A DNA stretch of 64,000 nucleotides from NCBI GenBank assembly GCA_963667465.2, contig CAXXDN010000001.1, positions 544,001 to 608,000 of the forward strand, given 5' to 3'. This DNA comes from Dehalococcoidia bacterium. Its GTDB lineage: Bacteria; Chloroflexota; Dehalococcoidia; UBA2979. Shown piece by piece: positions 4,232 to 45,045 of this stretch (position 1 is the first letter of the stretch; each line of letters begins with the position of its first letter). A program made the position numbers and the translations under genes. Below the pieces are notes generated by a model. That model had not been told where the DNA came from, ran no database searches, and was given only the letters and a program-made list of their open reading frames with translations.

Positions 4232-5149
4232 CTACGCTGTCCCCCCGTCCGAGGCATCCAGTCGTTCGCGCAGCAGCGCCGGAATCTCCTCGATACGTTC
4301 GGCGACGGCGATCCCGGCCGCCTCGAGGCGCGCGATCTTGTCGGCGGTCGTGTCGGCGCGGCCCTCGACGATCGTGCCGGCGTGGCCGAAGCGCATGCCG
4401 GGCATCTCGTCCATGAAGCGCCCCGCCATGAACGCCACCACCGGCAGCCGCGATGCGTGCTCCGCCATATGCGCCGCCAGCTGCGCCTCCATCGGCCCGC
4501 CCGGCTCCGAGTAGATCGCGATGCCCTGCGTCTGCTCGTCCGCCTCGAAGAGCGGCATCAGCTCAGCGTAGGTGGAGCCGATCATCGCGTCGCCGCCGAT
4601 CGAGACAGCGGTCGAGACGCCGAGGCCGGCCTCGGAGAGCGCGTTCGCAATCTCCGTCGTCATCCCGCCGGACCGCGACATCACGCCGACCACGCCGGGC
4701 ACGAAGGCGCGTCGCGTCGCGTCGGCTGCCCCACCGATGCCGCCCATCTTCGACTTGCCCGGCGAGATCACGCCCAGGCAGTTGGGGCCGATGATGCGCG
4801 CGCCCTCCTGCGAGGCGTACTCGATGGCGCGCGCGACCTGCGCGCGCGGGATGCGCTCCGTGACGACGACGATCAGCTTCACGCCCGCCTCGATCGCCTC
4901 GAGCACGGCGTCGGCGGCGAAGGCGGGCGGTACCGCGACGATCGAGCCGTCGACGTGCAGCTGCTCCGTGAGCGCGCGCACGGTGTCCTCGACGGGCACG
5001 CCGTGTACGTCGCGGCCCTTGCGGCCGGGCGTCACGCCGCCCACGACGCGCGCGCCGTAGTCGAGCAGCTCGCGGGTCATCGTCACCGCCTCGCGGCCGG
5101 TGATGCCCTGGATGATGAAGGTGCTGTCGGCGTCGATCAGGATGGACAC
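4232..5149 (-). CDS. sucD: Succinyl-CoA synthetase-family ligase, alpha subunit
   Basis: IIQGITG, GGVTPGRKG, IIGPNC, SRSGGMT and the phospho-His motif FGHAG; GTG start at 5149. Confidence 0.88.
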   Translation of the reverse strand: MSILIDADSTFIIQGITGREAVTMTRELLDYGARVVGGVTPGRKGRDVHGVPVEDTVRALTEQLHVDGSIVAVPPAFAADAVLEAIEAGVKLIVVVTERIPRAQVARAIEYASQEGARIIGPNCLGVISPGKSKMGGIGGAADATRRAFVPGVVGVMSRSGGMTTEIANALSEAGLGVSTAVSIGGDAMIGSTYAELMPLFEADEQTQGIAIYSEPGGPMEAQLAAHMAEHASRLPVVAFMAGRFMDEMPGMRFGHAGTIVEGRADTTADKIARLEAAGIAVAERIEEIPALLRERLDASDGGTA

Positions 5150-5151
5150 GG

Positions 5152-6375
5152 CTACCCGCCCCCATTCCCGGCGGCGGCTGCGGCCTTCTCGACCGCGCGC
5201 TGCGCCGCCTCGTGCATCGAGACGGAGCGGTCCACGTACTCGACGCCGTAGCGCTCGAGGATCTTGACGCCCTCTTCCTCCCACGAGCCGGGGATGCGGA
5301 AGATCGCGATCGCCTCGGCGGGGTCGCGACCGGCCTCGACCACGCCCTTGATCACGCCGCGCGCCATGATGTCGACGCGGGTGTTGGAGACGACGTTCAT
5401 CATCACGGCGATCTTCTCGACGCCGGGCTTGGACATCACCAGCCTGGTCAGCGCCGCCGCCTTTGCGACCGAGGGGTTGCCGCCGATCTCGCAGTAGTTC
5501 GCCGGATCGCCGCCGGCCCCGCGCACGGCGTCGAACAGCGTCAGCGAGCCACCGCCCGCGCCGATGATCAGCCCGAGGTTCCCGCCGAATTCGACGACGC
5601 GGCCGGCGACGCCGCGCGTGTCGGCGGCGTCCACCTGCGCGCCGGCGATCTCGAAGTCCGTCGGCGGGCGCGCCTGGCGCGTGTCCTCCTCGGGAATGCC
5701 GAGCTCGGCGAGGAGCCGTGCGTGCGTGCCGCGCGCCTCCTCCTCCATATCGATGTGCGAGTCGAGGGCGACGAAGGCGCCGCCGGCGAGGCGGCCGATC
5801 GGGTTGATCTCGGCCAGCGTCAGGTCGTACGCGAGGAAGACCTGCACGAGCGCGCCGACGATGCGGCTGAGCCGGTTGAGCTCGTTGCCAGTCACGCCAG
5901 TGCGCGAGACGGCCAGCTTCGCCTCGAAGTCCGAGACGGGGCGCAGGTTGGAGAGGTGCGTGCGCGAGAGGTGCTCCGGGTGCTGCTCGGCGACCTCCTC
6001 GATGTCGATGCCGCCCATGTCGCTGAAGATCACGACCGGGCGGCGCACGGCGGCGTCCCAGGTGACGGCGGCGTAGTACTCCTGCTCGACCGCGCCGCGC
6101 TCCTCGACGAGCACGCCCATCGGCTCCAGCCCGTTGATCTCGATGCCGAGGATCGCCGCGGCGGCCTCGGCGGCTTCCTCGGGCGTATCGGCGAAGCGCA
6201 CGCCGCCCGCCTTCATCCGTCCGCCGCTGAGCACCTGCGATTTGAGTACGACGGGGCCACCGAGGTCGCTCGTGGCTGTGGCGGCTTCCTCGGGGGTGAG
6301 GGCGACGCGGCGCTGCGGCAGCGGCACGCCGTGCCGCGCCAGCAGGTCCTTCGCCTCGTGCTCGTAGAAGCGCAT
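5152..6375 (-). CDS. sucC: Succinyl-CoA synthetase-family ligase, beta (ATP-grasp) subunit
   Basis: EHEAKDLL, KSQVLSGGRMKAGGV, EINP and NYCEIGG; substrate loop is atypical. Confidence 0.85.
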   Translation of the reverse strand: MRFYEHEAKDLLARHGVPLPQRRVALTPEEAATATSDLGGPVVLKSQVLSGGRMKAGGVRFADTPEEAAEAAAAILGIEINGLEPMGVLVEERGAVEQEYYAAVTWDAAVRRPVVIFSDMGGIDIEEVAEQHPEHLSRTHLSNLRPVSDFEAKLAVSRTGVTGNELNRLSRIVGALVQVFLAYDLTLAEINPIGRLAGGAFVALDSHIDMEEEARGTHARLLAELGIPEEDTRQARPPTDFEIAGAQVDAADTRGVAGRVVEFGGNLGLIIGAGGGSLTLFDAVRGAGGDPANYCEIGGNPSVAKAAALTRLVMSKPGVEKIAVMMNVVSNTRVDIMARGVIKGVVEAGRDPAEAIAIFRIPGSWEEEGVKILERYGVEYVDRSVSMHEAAQRAVEKAAAAAGNGGG

Positions 6376-6474
6376 CGGCCGCTCCTCGGGTCTCGCCTCG
6401 CTTCAGCGCGCACTATGCCACGGCGCGGCCTACGGGGGCAGGGGGCGATGCGCGCGGGTATCATCCATCGGGAC

Positions 6475-8904
6475 ATGTCCTCCGAGGGCTCCGGGCGACC
6501 CCTGACATCCGGCGACGAGCCGACTCCGGCTGCGGCATCCGCTGGCGCACTGGCCGGCGTGCTGGTCATCGATGCGAGCGAGGGCGTGGCCGGCGGCTAT
6601 GCCGGGCGGCTGCTCGCTGACCTTGGCGCGGAGGTCGTGAAGGTCGAGCCGCCCGCGGGCGACCGGCTCCGCGCGCTCGGACCGTTCCCCGGCGACCAAC
6701 TCGACCTCGAGGCGGGCGGCCTCCACCTCGCGCTGAACGCCGGCAAGCGCTCGCTGGTGCTGGACCTCGAGTCTCGCGAGGGGCGGGAGCGGCTCCGTGC
6801 GCTGGCCGCGCTGGCCGACATCCTGCTCGAGGGCGCCGGCCCCGGGGTGATGGAGGGCCGGGGCCTCGGCCCCGAGCGGCTGCTCGCGGCCAACCCGCAG
6901 CTGGTCTACGCCTCGCATTCTCCGTTCGGGCTGACCGGACCCTACGCGGGGCGGGTCACGAGCGAGATCGTCGACTGGGCGATGGGCGGCTACCTGTACT
7001 TCGGCGGCGATCCGGGGCGGTCGCCGATCATGGTGCACGGTCACCAGGCGGAGCTGCACGCAGGCATGCAGCTCGCCGCGGGAGCGCTCGCGGCGCTGTG
7101 GCACGCGCGGCGCACGGGCGCCGGGCAACACCTCGAGGCCACCACGATCGAGTCCGTGCTGAATGCGCACGTCTGGCTGACGACGATGTGGACGCACGAG
7201 GGCCTGATCCAGACCCGCGAGCCCTCGCCACTGATTCCCTGCGCCGACGGACACGTGGTCTGGCTGGGGACGCCCAACCTCGACATCTTTGTGCTGATCG
7301 AGCGGCCGGACCTGATCGACGACCCGCGCTGGGCGACGCCCGAGGGCTGGCGCGAGTCCGTGCCGGAGATTCGCGCCCTGCTGGCCGAGTGGGCGGCCGA
7401 CCGTCCACGCGCCGAGATCTGCGAGAAGGGCCAGACGCTGCGGCTGGCCGTCACGCCGGTCAACACCGTCGAGGAGCTCGCGCAGTCGGCGCAGCTCCGG
7501 GCGCGGGGCTGGTGGCGAGAGACGCCGCACCCGGAGCTCGGCGCCCTGCTGCTTCCCGGTCCGCCGTGGCTGCTGTCGGGCACGCCCGCCGGTCCGCGCG
7601 GCGCGGCGCCACGGCTCGCCGCCGACGCCGGGTACGAGCCCCCTCCTCGCGAGCGGGCGACGCCGGGGGCCGCCGACCCGGACGCGCTGCCCCTCGAGGG
7701 CGTCAGGGTCATCGAGGTTACGGGTAACTGGTCGGGACCGCTGGCCGGCCGGCACCTCGGGGACCTCGGGGCGGAGGTGGTGAAGATCGAGCTGGCGCGG
7801 CGGCCCGCCACCCGCGTCAGCCACCCGCCGGGGAACGAGGGCTGGGAGACGTTCTACAACCGCTCCGGCTACTTCAACCTCCTCAACCGCAACAAGCGCG
7901 ACCTCTGCCTCGACCTTGGGACCGAGCGCGGGCGCGAGCTGTTCCTGCGACTCGTCGAGGATGCCGACGTCGTGCTCGAGAACAACAGCGCGCGCGTCTT
8001 CCCGCAGCTCGGCCTCGACTACGAGACGCTCGCGAGGCGCAATCCGCGGATCGTGATGTGCTCGATCGCGGGCTATGGCGCCACCGGCCCGGAGCGCGAT
8101 TACCTCGCGTACGGCTCGAACATCGAGGCCTCCTGCGGGCTGGCGGCGCAGACCGGGTACGGCGACGGGGCTCCGCGCGGCACCAACTCGTACTACGCGG
8201 ATCCGATCACCGGGGCGCACGCCATCGTCGGCATCCTCGCGGCGCTGCACGCCCGCGAGCGCACCGGCCGGGGGCAGCAGCTCGACATGGCGCTCCAGGA
8301 ATCGGGGGCGGCGTTCATGATCGAGTCGATCATGGACTACCGGCTCAACGGCCGGGTCGCGCGCCCTCGCGGGAACCGCTCGACGCGAATCGCGCCGCAG
8401 GGCGTGTACCGCTCGCTCGGGACCGACTGCTGGCTCGCGATCGGCGTCGAGACGGACGAGCAGTGGCGGGCGCTGTGCACGGTGATCGAGCGCCCCGAGC
8501 TCGCCGATCGCTTCCCCATGCTCGAGGACCGGCTCGCCGCCCACAACGAGATCGACGCCGCCATCGAGGGCTGGTCCGGGTCGCGCAATCACAACCGCGC
8601 CACCGAGGCGCTGCAGGAGGCCGGCGTTCCGGCGGGCCCGGTGCTCGCGAACTGGGAGATCGTCAGCGACCCGCACCTCTACGAACGCGGCTACTTCGTC
8701 GACATCGTGCACCCGGACGTCGGGCATCAGCGCTGGGAGGGCTTCCCCTGGCGACTCTCGCGGACCCCGGCGCGCGTCCGCCGGCCCGCCCCGCTGTTCG
8801 CTCAGCACACCGACGAGATCCTCGGCGAGCTGGGGCTCAGCTCCACGGAGATCGCGCGACTGCGCGACGACGGAGTAGTCGGCTACGAGCCGCTGTACGG
8901 CTGA
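6475..8904 (+). CDS. Family III CoA-transferase (CaiB/BaiF), tandem two-domain
   Basis: Two CaiB N-terminal motifs (LADLGAEVVKVEPP..GD..R, LGDLGAEVVKIE) and two N..KR motifs; ATG at 6475. Confidence 0.9.
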   Translation: MSSEGSGRPLTSGDEPTPAAASAGALAGVLVIDASEGVAGGYAGRLLADLGAEVVKVEPPAGDRLRALGPFPGDQLDLEAGGLHLALNAGKRSLVLDLESREGRERLRALAALADILLEGAGPGVMEGRGLGPERLLAANPQLVYASHSPFGLTGPYAGRVTSEIVDWAMGGYLYFGGDPGRSPIMVHGHQAELHAGMQLAAGALAALWHARRTGAGQHLEATTIESVLNAHVWLTTMWTHEGLIQTREPSPLIPCADGHVVWLGTPNLDIFVLIERPDLIDDPRWATPEGWRESVPEIRALLAEWAADRPRAEICEKGQTLRLAVTPVNTVEELAQSAQLRARGWWRETPHPELGALLLPGPPWLLSGTPAGPRGAAPRLAADAGYEPPPRERATPGAADPDALPLEGVRVIEVTGNWSGPLAGRHLGDLGAEVVKIELARRPATRVSHPPGNEGWETFYNRSGYFNLLNRNKRDLCLDLGTERGRELFLRLVEDADVVLENNSARVFPQLGLDYETLARRNPRIVMCSIAGYGATGPERDYLAYGSNIEASCGLAAQTGYGDGAPRGTNSYYADPITGAHAIVGILAALHARERTGRGQQLDMALQESGAAFMIESIMDYRLNGRVARPRGNRSTRIAPQGVYRSLGTDCWLAIGVETDEQWRALCTVIERPELADRFPMLEDRLAAHNEIDAAIEGWSGSRNHNRATEALQEAGVPAGPVLANWEIVSDPHLYERGYFVDIVHPDVGHQRWEGFPWRLSRTPARVRRPAPLFAQHTDEILGELGLSSTEIARLRDDGVVGYEPLYG

Positions 8905-8913
8905 GGCAGGCGG

Positions 8914-9975
8914 CTACTCCAGCCCGTAGGCCTCCGCCAGTTCCGGGTCTTTCGAGGCCAGCAGCTCCGCCAGGTCGAGCATGACGAGCGCCTGCTTGTA
9001 GGTCGCGTCGTCCTGCATCTTGCCGTCCAGCATCACCACGCCCGAGCCGTCGCCCATGTGCTCGACGATGCGCCTGGCGAAGGCGACCTCGTCCGCAGGG
9101 GGGCTGAAGACGCGCTTCGCGATCTCGATCTGGTTCGGGTGCAGCGTCCAGGCGCCGACGCAGCCCATCAGGAAGGCCGCGCGGAACTGATCCTCGCAGG
9201 CCAGCGGGTCCGCGATGTCGCCGAACGGCCCGTAGTAGGGCAGTGCGCCGGCCTCGACGCAGGCGTCGACCATGCGCGCGAGCGTGTAGTGCCAGAGATC
9301 CTGCTGCGCCGTCGGGCGCGGCGCCTCGTCGTCATCGGGCACCGGATCGCTGCGCACCAGGTAGCCGGGGTGACCGCCGCCGACGCGCGTGGTCTTCATC
9401 CGCCGCGAGGCGGCGAGGTCGGCCGGCCCGAGGCTCATGCCCTGCACGCGCGGACTCGCCTGCGCGATCTCCTTGACGTGGTTCACGCCTCCGGCGGTCT
9501 CGAGGACGGCGTGGATCAGGTAGGGCCGCGTCAGCCCGTGCCGCGCTTCCAGCTGCGCGAGCAGCTGATCCGCCCAGTGGATGTCCCACGGCCCGGTGAC
9601 CTTGGGCAGCATGATCACCTCGAGGCGCTCGCCGAGGGCAGCCGTCAGCTCGATCAGGTCGTCCAGCACCCAGGGACTGTCGAGGCTGTTGACGCGCGTC
9701 CACAGCGCCGTCTCCCCGAGGTCGCCGCTCTGGCCGACCTCGATCAGGCCGGCGCGCGCCTCCAGCTTCTTGTCGGACGGGATCGCGTCCTCGAGATTGC
9801 CGACCAGCACGTCGACCTGCGCGGCCATCGACGCGACGCGCGCGCGCATGCGCTCGTTGGAGGGGTCGAAGAAGTGCAGCATCCGCGTCGGCGTGACGGG
9901 AATCTCGTCGGGCGGCGGTGGTGCGCCGAGGGCCAGTGGCTTGCGCCATTCGCGGGGCGTGCGTGTCGCGCTCAT
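8914..9975 (-). CDS. CoA-ester lyase (CitE / malyl-CoA lyase family)
   Basis: [37 protein letters not shown] and GKMQDDAT. Confidence 0.88.
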
Positions 9976-10092
9976 CGGCAGCTCCCGGTGATCCAGACTG
10001 TCGTTCCGTGCAGGCGGCCGGACCCGCCGGCGCGTGCGCAGCCTAGCCGGGGCGGCGACGCCACGCCAGCGCCCGCCGTGCCGCGGCGGCGC

Positions 10093-11016: not shown

Positions 11017-11558
11017 GAGCGTCGCACCAGTCGCGTGCCGGCGATCCAGTCGTGCGGCAGGCGTCCGTGGGGCCGCTCGCGCTTGCGCGCCGCGCTCACG
11101 GCGAGCGACGCCAGCCAGAAGGCGCCGCCTCCGACGGCGATGAGCAAGCCGACGACCAGCGCCAGGACCGGGTGCACCCCCGCCAGCAGCGAGGTGAGCA
11201 ACAGCCAGCCCCAGAGCAGCAGCGAGAGCGGGTGCAGCAGCAGTCGCAGCGCGCGCCTCCAGCGCGGGCCCTCGACGGCGAGGCCGAGCCGCGCCTGCCC
11301 GAACGTCGCGCCGAGGCGGTAGAGGCGGAGCGCCTGCCAGGCCGTCCAGGCGGGCACGATCGCTCCGATCAGCGAGGTGGCGATCAGCGTGTCTCCCGTC
11401 TCCGCGTCGTAGCGACCCGCCGAGCTGCGGATCAGCAGCCAGACGAACGCCACGACCAGCCCGGCCAGCAACAGCAGCAGCAGCGTCGCGGCGTCGATCA
11501 CGACGGCCACCAGCCGCACGAGGCGTCCCGCCCGCTGCTGGCCGCCGACGCTGCTCAT
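11013..11558 (-). CDS. RDD family membrane protein
   Basis: RLVAVVID, GATFGQARLGLAV and HDWIAGTRLV RDD signature. Confidence 0.85.
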   Translation of the reverse strand: MSSVGGQQRAGRLVRLVAVVIDAATLLLLLLAGLVVAFVWLLIRSSAGRYDAETGDTLIATSLIGAIVPAWTAWQALRLYRLGATFGQARLGLAVEGPRWRRALRLLLHPLSLLLWGWLLLTSLLAGVHPVLALVVGLLIAVGGGAFWLASLAVSAARKRERPHGRLPHDWIAGTRLVRRS

Positions 11559-42694: not shown

Positions 42695-42882
42695 CGTCGG
42701 ACCCCGTTCGGTGTTCGCCCGCGCCGCCCGCCGGGCCGCGGACCAGGCGCCCGCGCGCCGCTCCGGCGCATCCGGGGGAGCATACCAGCACATCGCCTTC
42801 CGATCGGCGACTGTTGAGCGGACGAGGCGGTGGAGCGTCCCTCGCGCGGTACCCTGTGCGTGGATGCGATTCGGGGTGCGGT

Positions 42883-43140
42883 GTGGCGAGCGTCTGGCAG
42901 CGGTTGCGTCGAGCCGTTGCCGACCGCTTCGTGGGCTTCCACACCGCTTACCTCAACTTCCGCAACTACGATGCGCCGCTGGCGGTGAAGTGGCGGCTCC
43001 TCTGGCGCAACAACTGGATCAAGGCGCGCACCTTTTCGCTGTGCTGCGGCAACCTCGGCGAACCCGGCTGCTGACGGGACTTCGAGGAGCCCCGTGAGGG
43101 CTCGGAAGACCATCACCACGAGCACCCGCACCACCACTAG
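42883..43140 (+). CDS. Candidate selenoprotein, copy 1 (in-frame TGA at 43072-43074)
   Basis: ...SLCCGNLGEPGC-U-RDFEEPREGSEDHHHEHPHHH-TAG; the post-TGA frame is conserved with copy 2; SECIS-like hairpin. Confidence 0.75.
43075..43108 (+). promoter_or_regulatory. Putative SECIS element, copy 1
   Basis: GAGCCC-CGTGA-GGGCTC (43087-43103) 12 nt after the TGA; lower stem CTTC/GAAG. Confidence 0.65.
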
Positions 43141-43170
43141 CGGCGGGTTCGAGGCGCTACCCTGTAGCGG

Positions 43171-43206
43171 CGAGCGGCGGACCGGAGGCGAGCGGCGGAC
43201 CGGAGG
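43171..43206. repeat. 18-nt tandem duplication containing a GGAGG RBS
   Basis: cgagcggcggaccggagg x2. Confidence 0.8.
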
Positions 43207-43214
43207 TGAGCGTG

Positions 43215-43469
43215 GTGAATCCCTGGCAGTGGCTGCGCGGCCTCGTCCTCGGCACTGTGCGGAGCTGGCGCACGACCTACCTCAACTTCCGTGACTACGA
43301 CGCGCCGCTCCTGGTCAAGGTCCGGCTCTTCGCCCGCAACAAGTGGACCATGGCGCGCACGCTCTCGCTGTGTTGCGGCAACCACGGCGAGCCCGGTTGC
43401 TGAAACGACTCCGGTGAGCCCCGTGAGGGCTCGGAGCACCACCACCACGACCACCCGCACGCGCATTAG
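43215..43469 (+). CDS. Candidate selenoprotein, copy 2 (in-frame TGA at 43401-43403)
   Basis: ...SLCCGNHGEPGC-U-NDSGEPREGSEHHHHDHPHAH-TAG; GGAGGT RBS at 43202; start is GTG at 43206, 43212 or 43215. Confidence 0.75.
43404..43436 (+). promoter_or_regulatory. Putative SECIS element, copy 2
   Basis: Identical 17-nt hairpin at 43416-43432, 12 nt after the TGA; lower stem CTCC/GGAG. Confidence 0.65.
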
Positions 43470-43540
43470 CCGGCGTAGCCCGCCGCCCCCGGACGAGCGC
43501 GCCGCTCGACGGTCCGAGGCATCCGACTCATCCGCACCCC

Positions 43541-43592
43541 CTGGATTCCGGCTTTCGCCGGAATGACGGGACGGGGCGAGCCCGGAATGACG
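43541..43592. repeat. REP-like palindrome
   Basis: CTGGATTCCGGC-TTTC-GCCGGAATGACG hairpin with a second CCGGAATGACGG half-copy. Confidence 0.75.
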
Positions 43593-43656
43593 GTTCTGTG
43601 GAGGTATCGAGCGGGGAGCGAGGGCCGGAGGATGCCGAACGCCCTCGAGAGTCGGG

Positions 43657-43790
43657 TGCGCCCTTGATGGTTCCGGGGGGCGTGGGGGCTTCGCCCCCAC
43701 AGAAAGAAAGTCCGAGGGTGGGTGGGCGGGGCCGAGCGGCGCGGAGCGCGTGCTCGCCCGGGATGGGGTGTGGGGGGCGCAGCCCTCCAC
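43657..43790. repeat. Dispersed intergenic repeat, copy B
   Basis: Similar to 37132-37265; followed by a CCCCTCACCCCTACCCTCTC REP-like unit near 43827. Confidence 0.75.
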
Positions 43791-43959
43791 AGCAGACCGC
43801 CGTCGTCGTCGCTGGCCGCGCGGCACCCCCTCACCCCTACCCTCTCGGCAAGGGGAGTAGGGTGCCGGATCGCTCTCGCGGGCCCCGCCGTGTGGCACCG
43901 GCGGGCGGCGTCGTGTAGCGTCCGCCCGCGCCCGATCGCGCGCATCGAGGGGGTACGGG

Positions 43960-45045
43960 ATGAAAGCAGCAGTCTTCCACGGCGTGAACCAGCCGCTCAC
44001 CATCGAGGACATCGACGTCGACGAGCCGCGCGACTACGAGGTGCTGGTGCGCACCGCGGCCGCGGGCGTCTGCCACTCCGAGCTGCACATGATCGAAGGC
44101 CACTCGCCTGTGCCCCCGCCCTCCGTGCTCGGCCACGAGTCCGCAGGCGTCGTCGAGCGCGTCGGCAGCCGCGTGACCTACGTCCAGCCGGGCGACCACG
44201 TGATCGCCCGCGGCACCTTCTGCGGCCACTGCGAGATGTGCCTGACCGGGCACCTCAACGTCTGCACGAACCGTCCCGGCCGCGCCCCGGACGACGCCCC
44301 GGTGATGTCCTGGAACGGTGAGCGCCTCAACCAGTGGGGCTCCAACATCTTCGGCTGGTCGGAGCAGATGCTGCTGCACGAGAACGGCGTGGTGAAGATC
44401 TCGCCGGAGATGCCGCTCGACGCCGCCGCGCTGCTCGGCTGCGCCGTGATCACCGGCTTCGGCGCGGTGATGCGTACCGCGCAGGTCGAGGCCGGCAGCT
44501 CGATCGCGGTCTTTGGCTGCGGCGGCATCGGCCTGTCGGCGATCCAGGGCGGCGCCGTCTCCGGCTGCCAGCGCGTGATCGCCGTCGATCTGCTCGACTC
44601 CAAGCTCGAGGTCGCGCGCGAGTTCGGCGCGACCCACACCGTGAACGGATCGACCGAGGACCCCGTCGCCGCGATCCGCGAGATCGCGGACGGCGAGGGC
44701 GTGCACTACTCGTTCGACGCGATCGGCCTGGCGAGCGTGGCGATGCAGGCGCTCGACTGCCTGCGCCCGCAGGGCACCGCGACGCTGATCGGCGTGATTC
44801 CCGAGGAGACGCCGCTCAACTTCGGCTGGCGGCGGCTGAGCGGCGAAAAGCGGATCCAGGGCTGCATGATGGGCTCGAACCGCTTCCGCATGGACCTGCC
44901 GATGCTCGTGGACCTCTACATGCAGGGCCGGCTCAAGCTCGACGAGATGATCACCACCCGCGGCTCGCTCGAGGACGTCAACGACTTCCTGGAGATCATG
45001 AAGGGCGGCGCCGTCACCCGGCAGGTGATGATGATGGACTCGTAG
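43960..45045 (+). CDS. Zn-dependent alcohol dehydrogenase
   Basis: CHSE, GHE, CGHCEMC..C and GCGGIG. Confidence 0.93.
   Translation: MKAAVFHGVNQPLTIEDIDVDEPRDYEVLVRTAAAGVCHSELHMIEGHSPVPPPSVLGHESAGVVERVGSRVTYVQPGDHVIARGTFCGHCEMCLTGHLNVCTNRPGRAPDDAPVMSWNGERLNQWGSNIFGWSEQMLLHENGVVKISPEMPLDAAALLGCAVITGFGAVMRTAQVEAGSSIAVFGCGGIGLSAIQGGAVSGCQRVIAVDLLDSKLEVAREFGATHTVNGSTEDPVAAIREIADGEGVHYSFDAIGLASVAMQALDCLRPQGTATLIGVIPEETPLNFGWRRLSGEKRIQGCMMGSNRFRMDLPMLVDLYMQGRLKLDEMITTRGSLEDVNDFLEIMKGGAVTRQVMMMDS

Follow-up and report, generated by a model that had tools for sequence, protein, structure and literature searches.

Tandem genes for putative small selenoproteins in a Dehalococcoidia bacterium suggest a new and widespread bacterial family

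Bacteria insert selenocysteine (Sec) at in-frame UGA codons by means of the elongation factor SelB and a hairpin immediately downstream, the selenocysteine insertion sequence (SECIS), for which the element of Escherichia coli fdhF has provided a rule on spacing and loop. Vicinal pairs of thiol or selenol residues are also familiar from larger enzymes: the large thioredoxin reductases end in GCUG, and mercuric reductase ends with Cys-Cys. A review of May 2026 (PMC13188914) lists 119 prokaryotic selenoprotein families, whose rows carry domain identifiers, mostly from Pfam, TIGRFAM or NCBIfam; among them, SaoC, SaoL, HgcA, MbdU, KCU-star and a Csac_0668 family possess a 'CU' motif. Here, we analyze a stretch of 64,000 nucleotides (the window) from a Dehalococcoidia bacterium (Chloroflexota; UBA2979; assembly GCA_963667465.2, contig CAXXDN010000001.1, positions 544,001 to 608,000 of the forward strand), which harbors two small paralogous genes in tandem (42883-43469, + strand). 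In both, an in-frame TGA follows a Cys-rich motif, and both probably encode selenoproteins.

In our interpretation, the UGA after the motif ...CCGNxGEPGC is recoded as Sec, and the two genes are tandem paralogs of a family of small bacterial selenoproteins. We assign this reading a probability of roughly 0.88, a figure that covers the selenoprotein status of the products and not their function. The UGA would be decoded by SelB and tRNA-Sec, aided by a short GU-loop hairpin that starts about 12 nt downstream, and gene callers, which stop at UGA, would annotate a stub of 63 residues. The family would comprise bacterial proteins of about 50-100 residues, and the predicted product consists of a basic two-helix hairpin, a Gly/Pro-rich loop with two vicinal chalcogen pairs, and a disordered tail, which is rich in His, Asp and Glu in the lineage of the window and in Actinomycetota. 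The two pairs, a Cys-Cys and a Cys-Sec separated by seven residues (CC-x7-CU), are the proposed functional center.

The initial annotation, which had been made from the letters of the window alone, described two paralogous open reading frames (ORFs) with 32 of 43 identical core residues, the shared ending SLCCGN[L/H]GEPGC-TGA, 21 further codons with seven His each before a TAG, an identical hairpin after each TGA, and products of about 85 residues. We could reproduce these features throughout. A manual count on the BLASTP alignment of the two products yields the same 32/43 for the cores (and 47/75 over the whole alignment); motif, tail and stop codon are as described, and the sequence GAGCCC-CGTGA-GGGCTC begins 12 nt after the TGA in both genes. 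Both products are 85 residues long once gene 2 is taken to start at the GTG at 43212, which is likelier than the one at 43206 because homologs open with MVNPW and a GGAGG lies just upstream; for gene 1, the codon aligned to the GTG at 42883 is ATG in two relatives. The 21-codon open frame is likewise present in both genes, yet as evidence it is unremarkable by itself in a genome with 70.7% G+C. Rather, it is the in-frame His content, the TGA-specific conservation and the hairpin that make the pattern non-random. The invariant residues of the family are an Asn in helix 2, C54, C55, G56, P61, G62, C63 and Sec64 (gene 2 numbering). Contigs from three studies (runs X1, X4 and X6) are identical to the gene pair where they cover it, that of X6 ending at 43427, and in strain X8, which is 90-95% identical, both TGAs are retained and the tail of gene 1 is lengthened by an in-frame insertion of 9 nt. 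The coordinates of the individual features are collected in Table 1.

Table 1. Features of the gene pair and its immediate surroundings (positions within the 64,000-nucleotide window)
Feature	Position	Strand	Description
Gene 1	42883..43140	+	85 codons: GTG start, core end SLCCGNLGEPGC, Sec, 21-codon tail, TAG 43138-43140
Gene 1, in-frame TGA	43072..43074	+	Read as Sec; TGA in 120/122 unique homologous loci, Cys in other homologs
Gene 1, post-UGA tail	43075..43137	+	RDFEEPREGSEDHHHEHPHHH; hairpin-encoded linker EPREGS, then His-rich end, 7 His
Gene 1, SECIS-like hairpin	43080..43108	+	Lower stem 43080-83/43105-08; upper stem 43087-92/43098-43103; loop CGUGA 43093-97
Gene 2	43212..43469	+	85-codon paralog: GTG start (alternative 43206), core end SLCCGNHGEPGC, Sec, 21-codon tail, TAG 43467-43469
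Gene 2, in-frame TGA	43401..43403	+	Read as Sec; same basis as for gene 1
Gene 2, post-UGA tail	43404..43466	+	NDSGEPREGSEHHHHDHPHAH; linker, then His-rich end, 7 His
Gene 2, SECIS-like hairpin	43409..43436	+	Lower stem 43409-12/43433-36; upper stem 43416-21/43427-32; loop CGUGA 43422-26
TACCCT, TAnnnT-type -10-like hexamer	42852..42857	+	About 25 nt upstream of gene 1; conserved block in six genomes of the genus (MAFFT alignment of upstream regions)
Second TACCCT copy	43158..43163	+	Upstream of gene 2; same MAFFT alignment
18-nt tandem repeat, 2.4 copies	43169..43212	+	Between the genes; contains GGAGG ahead of gene 2

The most conventional alternative is that the TGA is an ordinary stop codon, in which case the product would be a peptide of 63 residues, the hairpin would act in termination or mRNA stability, and the His codons would simply reflect a CAC-rich sequence. 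Every database entry is annotated accordingly, and in all 30 database homologs the annotated end falls exactly at ...GEPGC; this is also what the initial annotation had expected of selenoprotein genes, namely that they are often recorded as truncated. Furthermore, TGA is the commonest stop codon in these G+C-rich genomes, and TAA occupies the position in one locus. The distribution of codons across homologs nevertheless speaks for recoding. We pooled 122 unique homologous loci, which come from Chloroflexota, Actinomycetota and Bacillota; 120 of them have TGA next to GEPGC, one has TAA and one TGT, whereas the true terminators of the same ORFs are TGA in 57, TAG in 49 and TAA in 16. TGA thus accounts for 120 of 121 stop codons at the position in question, compared to 47% at the true terminators, while TAA or TAG occurring there as often as TGA had been named at the outset as an observation that would count against selenocysteine.

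The same picture is obtained from searches in defined sets of genomes. A six-frame read-through search of 61 related genomes gave a match in 34, with a TGA inside the match in 38 of the 40 listed (one TGA in 36, two in one, and a TGA together with a TAA in one); the remaining two comprise a match with TAA only, in genome G047, and a weak match without any stop codon. For a scan of 185,579 species genomes, we used a pattern that leaves out the Sec position, and it yielded 142 confirmed relatives, from which 80 loci were kept; these contain 85 motif copies, followed by TGA in 84 and by TAA in one. Within Anaerolineae, matches were found in 21 of 151 sampled genomes, and all 22 strong matches hold one TGA. 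Acidimicrobiia have matches in 10 of 201 sampled genomes, again with one TGA each, and in the genus of the window organism the family is present in 17 of the other 18 genomes sampled.

Homologs with Cys aligned to the UGA, which the initial annotation had listed as prospective support, exist in several lineages, and their tails, including those that contain His, are translated without recoding. A profile search of 1.84 billion cluster representatives returned 438 proteins at E ≤ 0.001, 140 of them at E ≤ 1e-10. From the 150 best listed, we chose ten, made up of those in which the match falls short of the end of the protein and of a few long entries; three of these ten read GEPGC-C plus a tail under ordinary decoding, and two of the three, with His in their tails, represent clusters whose 10 and 6 members are sequence variants of diverse origin. 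Another of the ten has a Trp at the Sec position and again at the true stop, and is evidently a gene call of a Sec form in which TGA was translated as Trp. A first metagenome scan with the Cys form P0043 as query confirmed no relative; the DNA pattern CCGxxGEPGCC, by contrast, was found in at least 120 metagenome stretches. Eighty of these Cys-form loci were fetched, and they contain 68 unique sequences, 43 with TGT and 25 with TGC; four of them are cut off or disrupted, and another one (L198) does not resemble the members of the family. Their tails consist of a single Glu or Asp or of short His-containing stretches such as EGSSAKHHSHG. A Cys form is also present in G047, a 90% complete genome from the class of the window organism, where the gene reads GEPGC-C-D-stop with the Cys codon TGT; no selA was found in this genome, and neither selB nor tRNA-Sec scored above threshold. 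In a FastTree tree of the 44-residue core (188 rows: 120 Sec, 67 Cys and one unlabelled, with five poor Cys rows omitted), at least six changes between Sec and Cys are needed, a number that is only indicative because the core alignment is so short. Cys codons at exactly this position, in front of ordinarily translated tails, are difficult to reconcile with a simple stop codon.

A second line of evidence comes from the RNA. In both genes of the window, the upper stem and loop GAGCCC-CGUGA-GGGCUC (43087-43103 and 43416-43432) are the same, start 12 nt after the UGA and are extended by a lower stem of 4 bp. To assess covariation, we specified a helix of 7 bp on an alignment of 97 unique post-UGA segments. 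In this helix, 86.0% of cells are paired, compared to 71.7% in shuffled sequences, and none of 500 shuffles reaches the observed value; the covariation score is 0.375 versus 0.139, both sides change in six of the seven pairs, and every slid register of the helix scores lower. The stems themselves vary widely (GAGCCC, GGGUCC, GCGCCC, GGCGUC, CACC and others), and the G and U of the loop are nearly invariant. Under a strict rule applied to each sequence (a perfect stem of at least five pairs, at least three of them G-C, GU in the loop, and a start 8-22 nt after the codon), the hairpin occurs in 102 of 118 Sec forms (86%), as opposed to 2 of 65 Cys forms (3%) and 85 of 2360 shuffles (3.6%). In 75 of the 102 Sec forms that satisfy the rule, it starts 11-12 nt after the codon. 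The SECIS that the initial annotation had postulated just 3' of the UGA hence has its counterpart in a SECIS-like hairpin that is specific to the TGA forms. This specificity also tells against a role as terminator or stability element, as does the lack of a T-run, none having been found 3' of the hairpins.

Likewise, the sequence after the UGA behaves like a translated one. Across relatives, His makes up a fraction of 0.188 of the tails in frame, compared to 0.015 and 0.011 in the other two frames, and 81 of 119 tails contain at least three His; such frame-specific enrichment is at odds with a mere by-product of CAC-rich DNA. Between close relatives, the tails differ in synonymous codons (CAC/CAT, GGN and TCN) and through insertions and deletions that preserve the frame, and the peptide encoded by the hairpin varies (PREGS, PGAGS, SGSGS, SGPDS) with pairing kept. 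An in-frame and mostly His-rich extension is retained among homologs, in line with what had been anticipated, at lengths that range from 1 to 43 residues after Sec or Cys. In some homologs, the N-terminus is His-rich in place of the tail, and one tail has only two codons, so that the hairpin falls 3' of the stop codon. Taken together with the codon usage at the Sec position, we regard an ordinary stop codon as very improbable.

If the UGA is recoded, the genome has to encode the necessary machinery. The genome of the window organism (2.97 Mb on 2 contigs) contains selA (517 bits), selB (299), selD (358) and tRNA-Sec (77), which are the four components that the initial annotation had proposed to look for. 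The selD gene, which lies outside the window (G000:C1:106747-107682, locus L010), has one in-frame TGA in its N-terminal part (...SCGG-TGA-AGK), so SelD itself would be a selenoprotein in this genome; the RNA 3' of this UGA forms a longer fold that includes a hairpin with a GUG loop. Two further regions of the genome (G000:C1:235845-236714 and C1:496878-497747) match residues 2-262 of the selB model with equal scores of 191.5 bits, and look like a duplicated EF-Tu gene. Among the 61 relatives, selA scores above the cut-off in 50, and among the 32 with a TGA-type copy in 31; in the remaining genome, G053 (85% complete), selA is not over the cut-off, but selB (369 bits) and tRNA-Sec (66 bits) are present. 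All five distant carriers, three Anaerolineae, one genome labelled Pelotomaculum and one labelled Eubacteriales, also have selA. The co-occurrence that the initial annotation had proposed to test was thus observed, in that all TGA forms tested reside in Sec-using genomes and G047, for which no machinery was found, has the Cys form.

Several observations weigh against the selenoprotein reading or restrict it. The TAA mentioned above is found in locus L071 (4133-4192), from a metagenome-assembled genome labelled Pelotomaculum sp. UBA4789, where the hairpin and the frame of a His-containing tail are intact despite the stop codon, and where selA is present in the genome; it could be a recent mutation or a sequencing error, which we prefer, or else mark a truncated form. 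In Anaerolineae, selA occurs in 21 of 21 carriers but also in 131 of the 151 genomes sampled, and is so common that the co-occurrence test is weak there; in addition, related genomes are non-independent observations in all of these counts. On the RNA level, 16 of 118 Sec forms fail the strict GU-loop rule, most of them showing GG-type-loop hairpins by eye, and the whole 81-nt post-UGA segments of the window fold no better than shuffled sequences (z = -1.18 and +0.45). RNAalifold predicted no consensus structure on the MAFFT alignment, which is why the covariation analysis relied on a structure named by us and on single-sequence folding. On the protein level, the tails of Anaerolineae are short and mostly without His. 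The His tail is therefore not universal and, with one tail comprising only two codons, it cannot be essential to the core function. Finally, confidence is low (pLDDT 66.5) for the AlphaFold2 model built with 68 sequences, in which helices at 4-28 and 33-50 are followed by a Cys-rich loop and a disordered tail.

Consistent with the initial annotation, which did not recognize the family, neither Pfam nor NCBIfam contains a model that matches the two proteins of the window (P0001 and P0002), even at E up to 1, or one that matches the 63-residue stub or the Cys forms P0043 and P0087 at E up to 0.01. A profile search of the PDB (best E 0.7) and a Foldseek search against it (best E 7, with the low-confidence model as query) gave nothing usable. 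No true fused or longer family members were found: six longer database matches all end at ...PGC, of the five sequences fetched, four read as ORF calls extended too far, whereas a GFO/IDH domain was found in the fifth, which stems from a contig of 675 nt.

The gene neighborhood offers few clues, as no constant partner was found across lineages and the sets of neighbors differ. In Acidimicrobiia, the neighbors common to the loci are uppS, HlyIII and a TIM-barrel gene; in the genus of the window organism, they are a luciferase-like monooxygenase and a Zn alcohol dehydrogenase; and those in Anaerolineae are varied, including pyruvate kinase, short-chain dehydrogenases, AMP-binding enzymes and heliorhodopsin. 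The sole recurring functional hint is that genes for ArsP_1-type half-permeases adjoin the small gene in three Anaerolineae genomes; these permeases match the SaoE and SO_0444 efflux models weakly, with 39-49 bits compared to cut-offs of 300-325. In one such genome, G070, the small gene is present in three full copies, and a fourth that is broken, on a 5-kb section of a single contig (locus L159, G070:C9:13000-27000, 4780-10030), each just upstream of another gene, namely a deoxynucleoside kinase, TspO and two ArsP_1 half-permease genes, and a gene for an ArsR/SmtB regulator lies nearby (11153-11491).

The initial annotation had suggested a metal(loid)-binding or redox module. Of these two, we tentatively favor the former, at somewhat less than even odds: the CC-x7-CU center would be a site for a soft metal or metalloid ion, such as Hg, Cu(I), As(III), Cd or Zn, and the His tail would capture borderline metals, so that the protein would serve as a cytoplasmic metal buffer or chaperone. 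We favor metal binding because His/Asp tails have been acquired repeatedly, because some members have His-rich N-termini, and because of the few neighbors with a relation to metals or metalloids. It has to be said that this proposal draws on composition and on the neighbors in three related genomes, and that elsewhere the gene stands beside unrelated housekeeping genes.

A redox role of the same selenoprotein, the main alternative as far as function is concerned, appears less probable, if still worth considering. Here, the Cys-Sec pair would cycle between selenolate/thiolate and selenenylsulfide, with the Cys-Cys pair as resolving or relay center, and the protein might be a small thiol/selenol oxidoreductase, a scavenger of peroxides or electrophiles, or a substrate of a disulfide reductase. 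Cys forms often end in ...GEPGCC-E or ...GEPGCC-D, that is, with a vicinal pair close to the C-terminus, and the GCUG or SCCS ends of large thioredoxin reductases resemble them. A gene for a dihydrolipoyl-dehydrogenase-like flavoprotein disulfide reductase adjoins the small gene in 17 of the 80 Cys-form metagenome loci, and a redox function is assumed for most of the bacterial selenoproteins catalogued so far (PMC13188914). In these 17 loci (L229:1070-2032 and 16 others), the reductase gene is convergent to the small gene. As the neighbors are mostly 80-100% identical to each other, the adjacency reflects the synteny of one lineage, and no such gene was seen beside Sec-form loci or in the window. 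The family, moreover, has neither a thioredoxin fold nor a CxxC or CxxU motif, and metal binding accounts more readily for the His-rich tails that recur in it.

The proteins might also be free-standing counterparts of the mobile C-terminal Cys-Sec arm of large thioredoxin reductases and mercuric reductase, an analogy that we consider unlikely and put forward as speculation. As a diffusible carrier with its helical hairpin for a tether, such an arm would take up a soft metal(loid) ion or an electron pair at CC-x7-CU and pass this cargo on to a partner, for example an ArsP-type permease or a flavoprotein disulfide reductase. The His tail would act as an antenna, and the two diverged copies in the window might serve different partners or different metals.

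Two further explanations take up the arrangement of the genes. The first is that the small gene encodes the precursor of a ribosomally made and modified peptide, with a conserved helical leader and a Cys/Sec-rich core for tailoring enzymes. A Sec-containing 'selenobacteriocin' family is indeed listed in Table 1 of PMC13188914. Size and layout would fit, with a conserved N-terminal and a Cys-rich C-terminal part, as would the multiple copies on one contig of G070. We nonetheless judge this highly improbable: no radical-SAM enzyme, cyclodehydratase, protease or exporter recurs beside the gene in about 200 loci, and gene contexts differ between lineages. Furthermore, the cores of such peptides usually vary, whereas the presumed core motif is nearly invariant across phyla.

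The second is that the gene acts as a regulatory upstream ORF, in which passage of the ribosome over the UGA tracks the selenium supply and sets the expression of the gene downstream, the peptide itself being secondary. This would agree with three of the copies in G070, each of which precedes a same-strand gene for a membrane protein (TspO in one case, an ArsP_1 half-permease in two) at a distance of 61-113 nt. Yet strong conservation of the peptide extends over three phyla in which the genes downstream are unrelated, Cys forms without a UGA are common, and the next same-strand gene in the window starts about 490 nt downstream, so that we see hardly any room for this explanation.

The surroundings of the gene pair show a number of additional features. 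A block GC(G/C)(G/C)TACCCTGT precedes genes 1 and 2 alike in six genomes of the genus, and its TACCCT, which fits a TAnnnT -10 box, suggests that each paralog has its own promoter; a sigma-70 consensus scan gave no promoter match. One unit of the 18-nt repeat between the genes is missing in strain X8 and in four other genomes of the genus. Upstream, a strongly conserved stretch at about 42740-42800 (…CCGCTCCGGCGCATCCGGGGGAGCATACCAGCACA…) separates gene 1 from the divergent gene for the luciferase-like monooxygenase and could be a shared regulatory region; the monooxygenase gene probably starts near 42700 (MFIMYF…) and not at the first ATG of the ORF. Downstream, an unusually long gap of about 490 nt (43470-43960) lies between gene 2 and the gene for the Zn alcohol dehydrogenase, and the 11-mer CGGAATGACGG occurs twice in it, 26 nt apart (43558-43568 and 43584-43594). 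Searches with Rfam at the gathering threshold and with ARAGORN found nothing in the 64-kb window.

The conclusion that we are dealing with a new and widespread selenoprotein family, present here as a tandem pair and apparently decoded by an ordinary mechanism, is well supported by these comparisons. The family is absent from the 119-family inventory of PMC13188914, and no such family is mentioned in the accessible parts of deep-Sep (PMC12013277) or BSepDB (PMC13326102). GEPGCU, GEPGCC, CCGNHGEPGC and CCGHPGEPGC have no occurrence in the searchable literature, and for 'pgcu' the matches listed are all unrelated. We also considered a 78-residue deep-Sep family from a preprint on Actinomarina (10.64898/2026.04.03.716425), but the three genomes of about 1.1 Mb listed in the Acidimicrobiia sample have no match, which lends no support to its identity with the present family.

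All database entries that we saw are stubs cut at the UGA and lack a descriptive name, so that too few selenoproteins are counted in Dehalococcoidia, Anaerolineae and Actinomycetota, several of which live in sponges or are marine. The pairing of Sec with Cys forms, together with a compact and covarying SECIS, provides a clean test set for predictors of bacterial SECIS elements and selenoproteins. With two vicinal chalcogen pairs and a His tail, the proteins look like small newcomers to either metal(loid) handling or the redox chemistry of thiols and selenols, and they are short enough for synthesis and direct biochemistry.

With regard to its decoding, the family resembles the SelB/SECIS system of E. 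coli fdhF in its in-frame UGA, in a spacing of about 11-12 nt to a short hairpin with G and U in the loop, in the location of this hairpin inside the reading frame, and in the presence of selA, selB, selD and tRNA-Sec in the genome of the window organism. The encoded protein, by contrast, is unrelated, and its Sec lies near the C-terminus, so that most of the sequence after it consists of the SECIS and a variable tail; in some members, this tail is so short that the hairpin lies past the stop codon.

With regard to the protein, there are partial likenesses to several systems. Vertebrate selenoprotein P, which is reported to bind metals (PMC8280497), combines Sec/Cys-rich with His-rich stretches as well. 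This likeness is one of composition only: selenoprotein P is a secreted eukaryotic protein with many Sec residues and a SECIS in the 3' untranslated region, and has no sequence relation to the family. A vicinal pair after a Gly in a flexible C-terminus is shared with two enzymes, large thioredoxin reductase (GCUG end) and mercuric reductase (Cys-Cys end). Unlike in these enzymes, the arm is here a free-standing protein of 50-100 residues without FAD or NAD domain, and no fused forms were found.

Further parallels are SaoC (NF040734), KCU-star/DUF466 (NF033934), MbdU (NF045648) and SaoL (NF040728), which we compared via the table of PMC13188914 and tests with hidden Markov models. They likewise feature a vicinal Cys-Sec pair, and SaoC and KCU-star are, as in our family, small proteins with this pair at or near the C-terminus. 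Unlike them, the family has another N-terminal domain, a second CC pair seven residues upstream and a tail after the Sec; in particular, its Cys-Sec pair is not at the very C-terminus as in SaoC, to which those Cys forms come nearest that have one Glu or Asp following the pair. The models of SaoC, KCU-star/DUF466 and MbdU do not match the window proteins, the stub or the Cys forms, and no Sao gene neighborhood was seen at the loci of the family. As none of the models of the catalogued 'CU' families matches, we file it under none of them: the family works like the small C-terminal Cys-Sec proteins without belonging to them.

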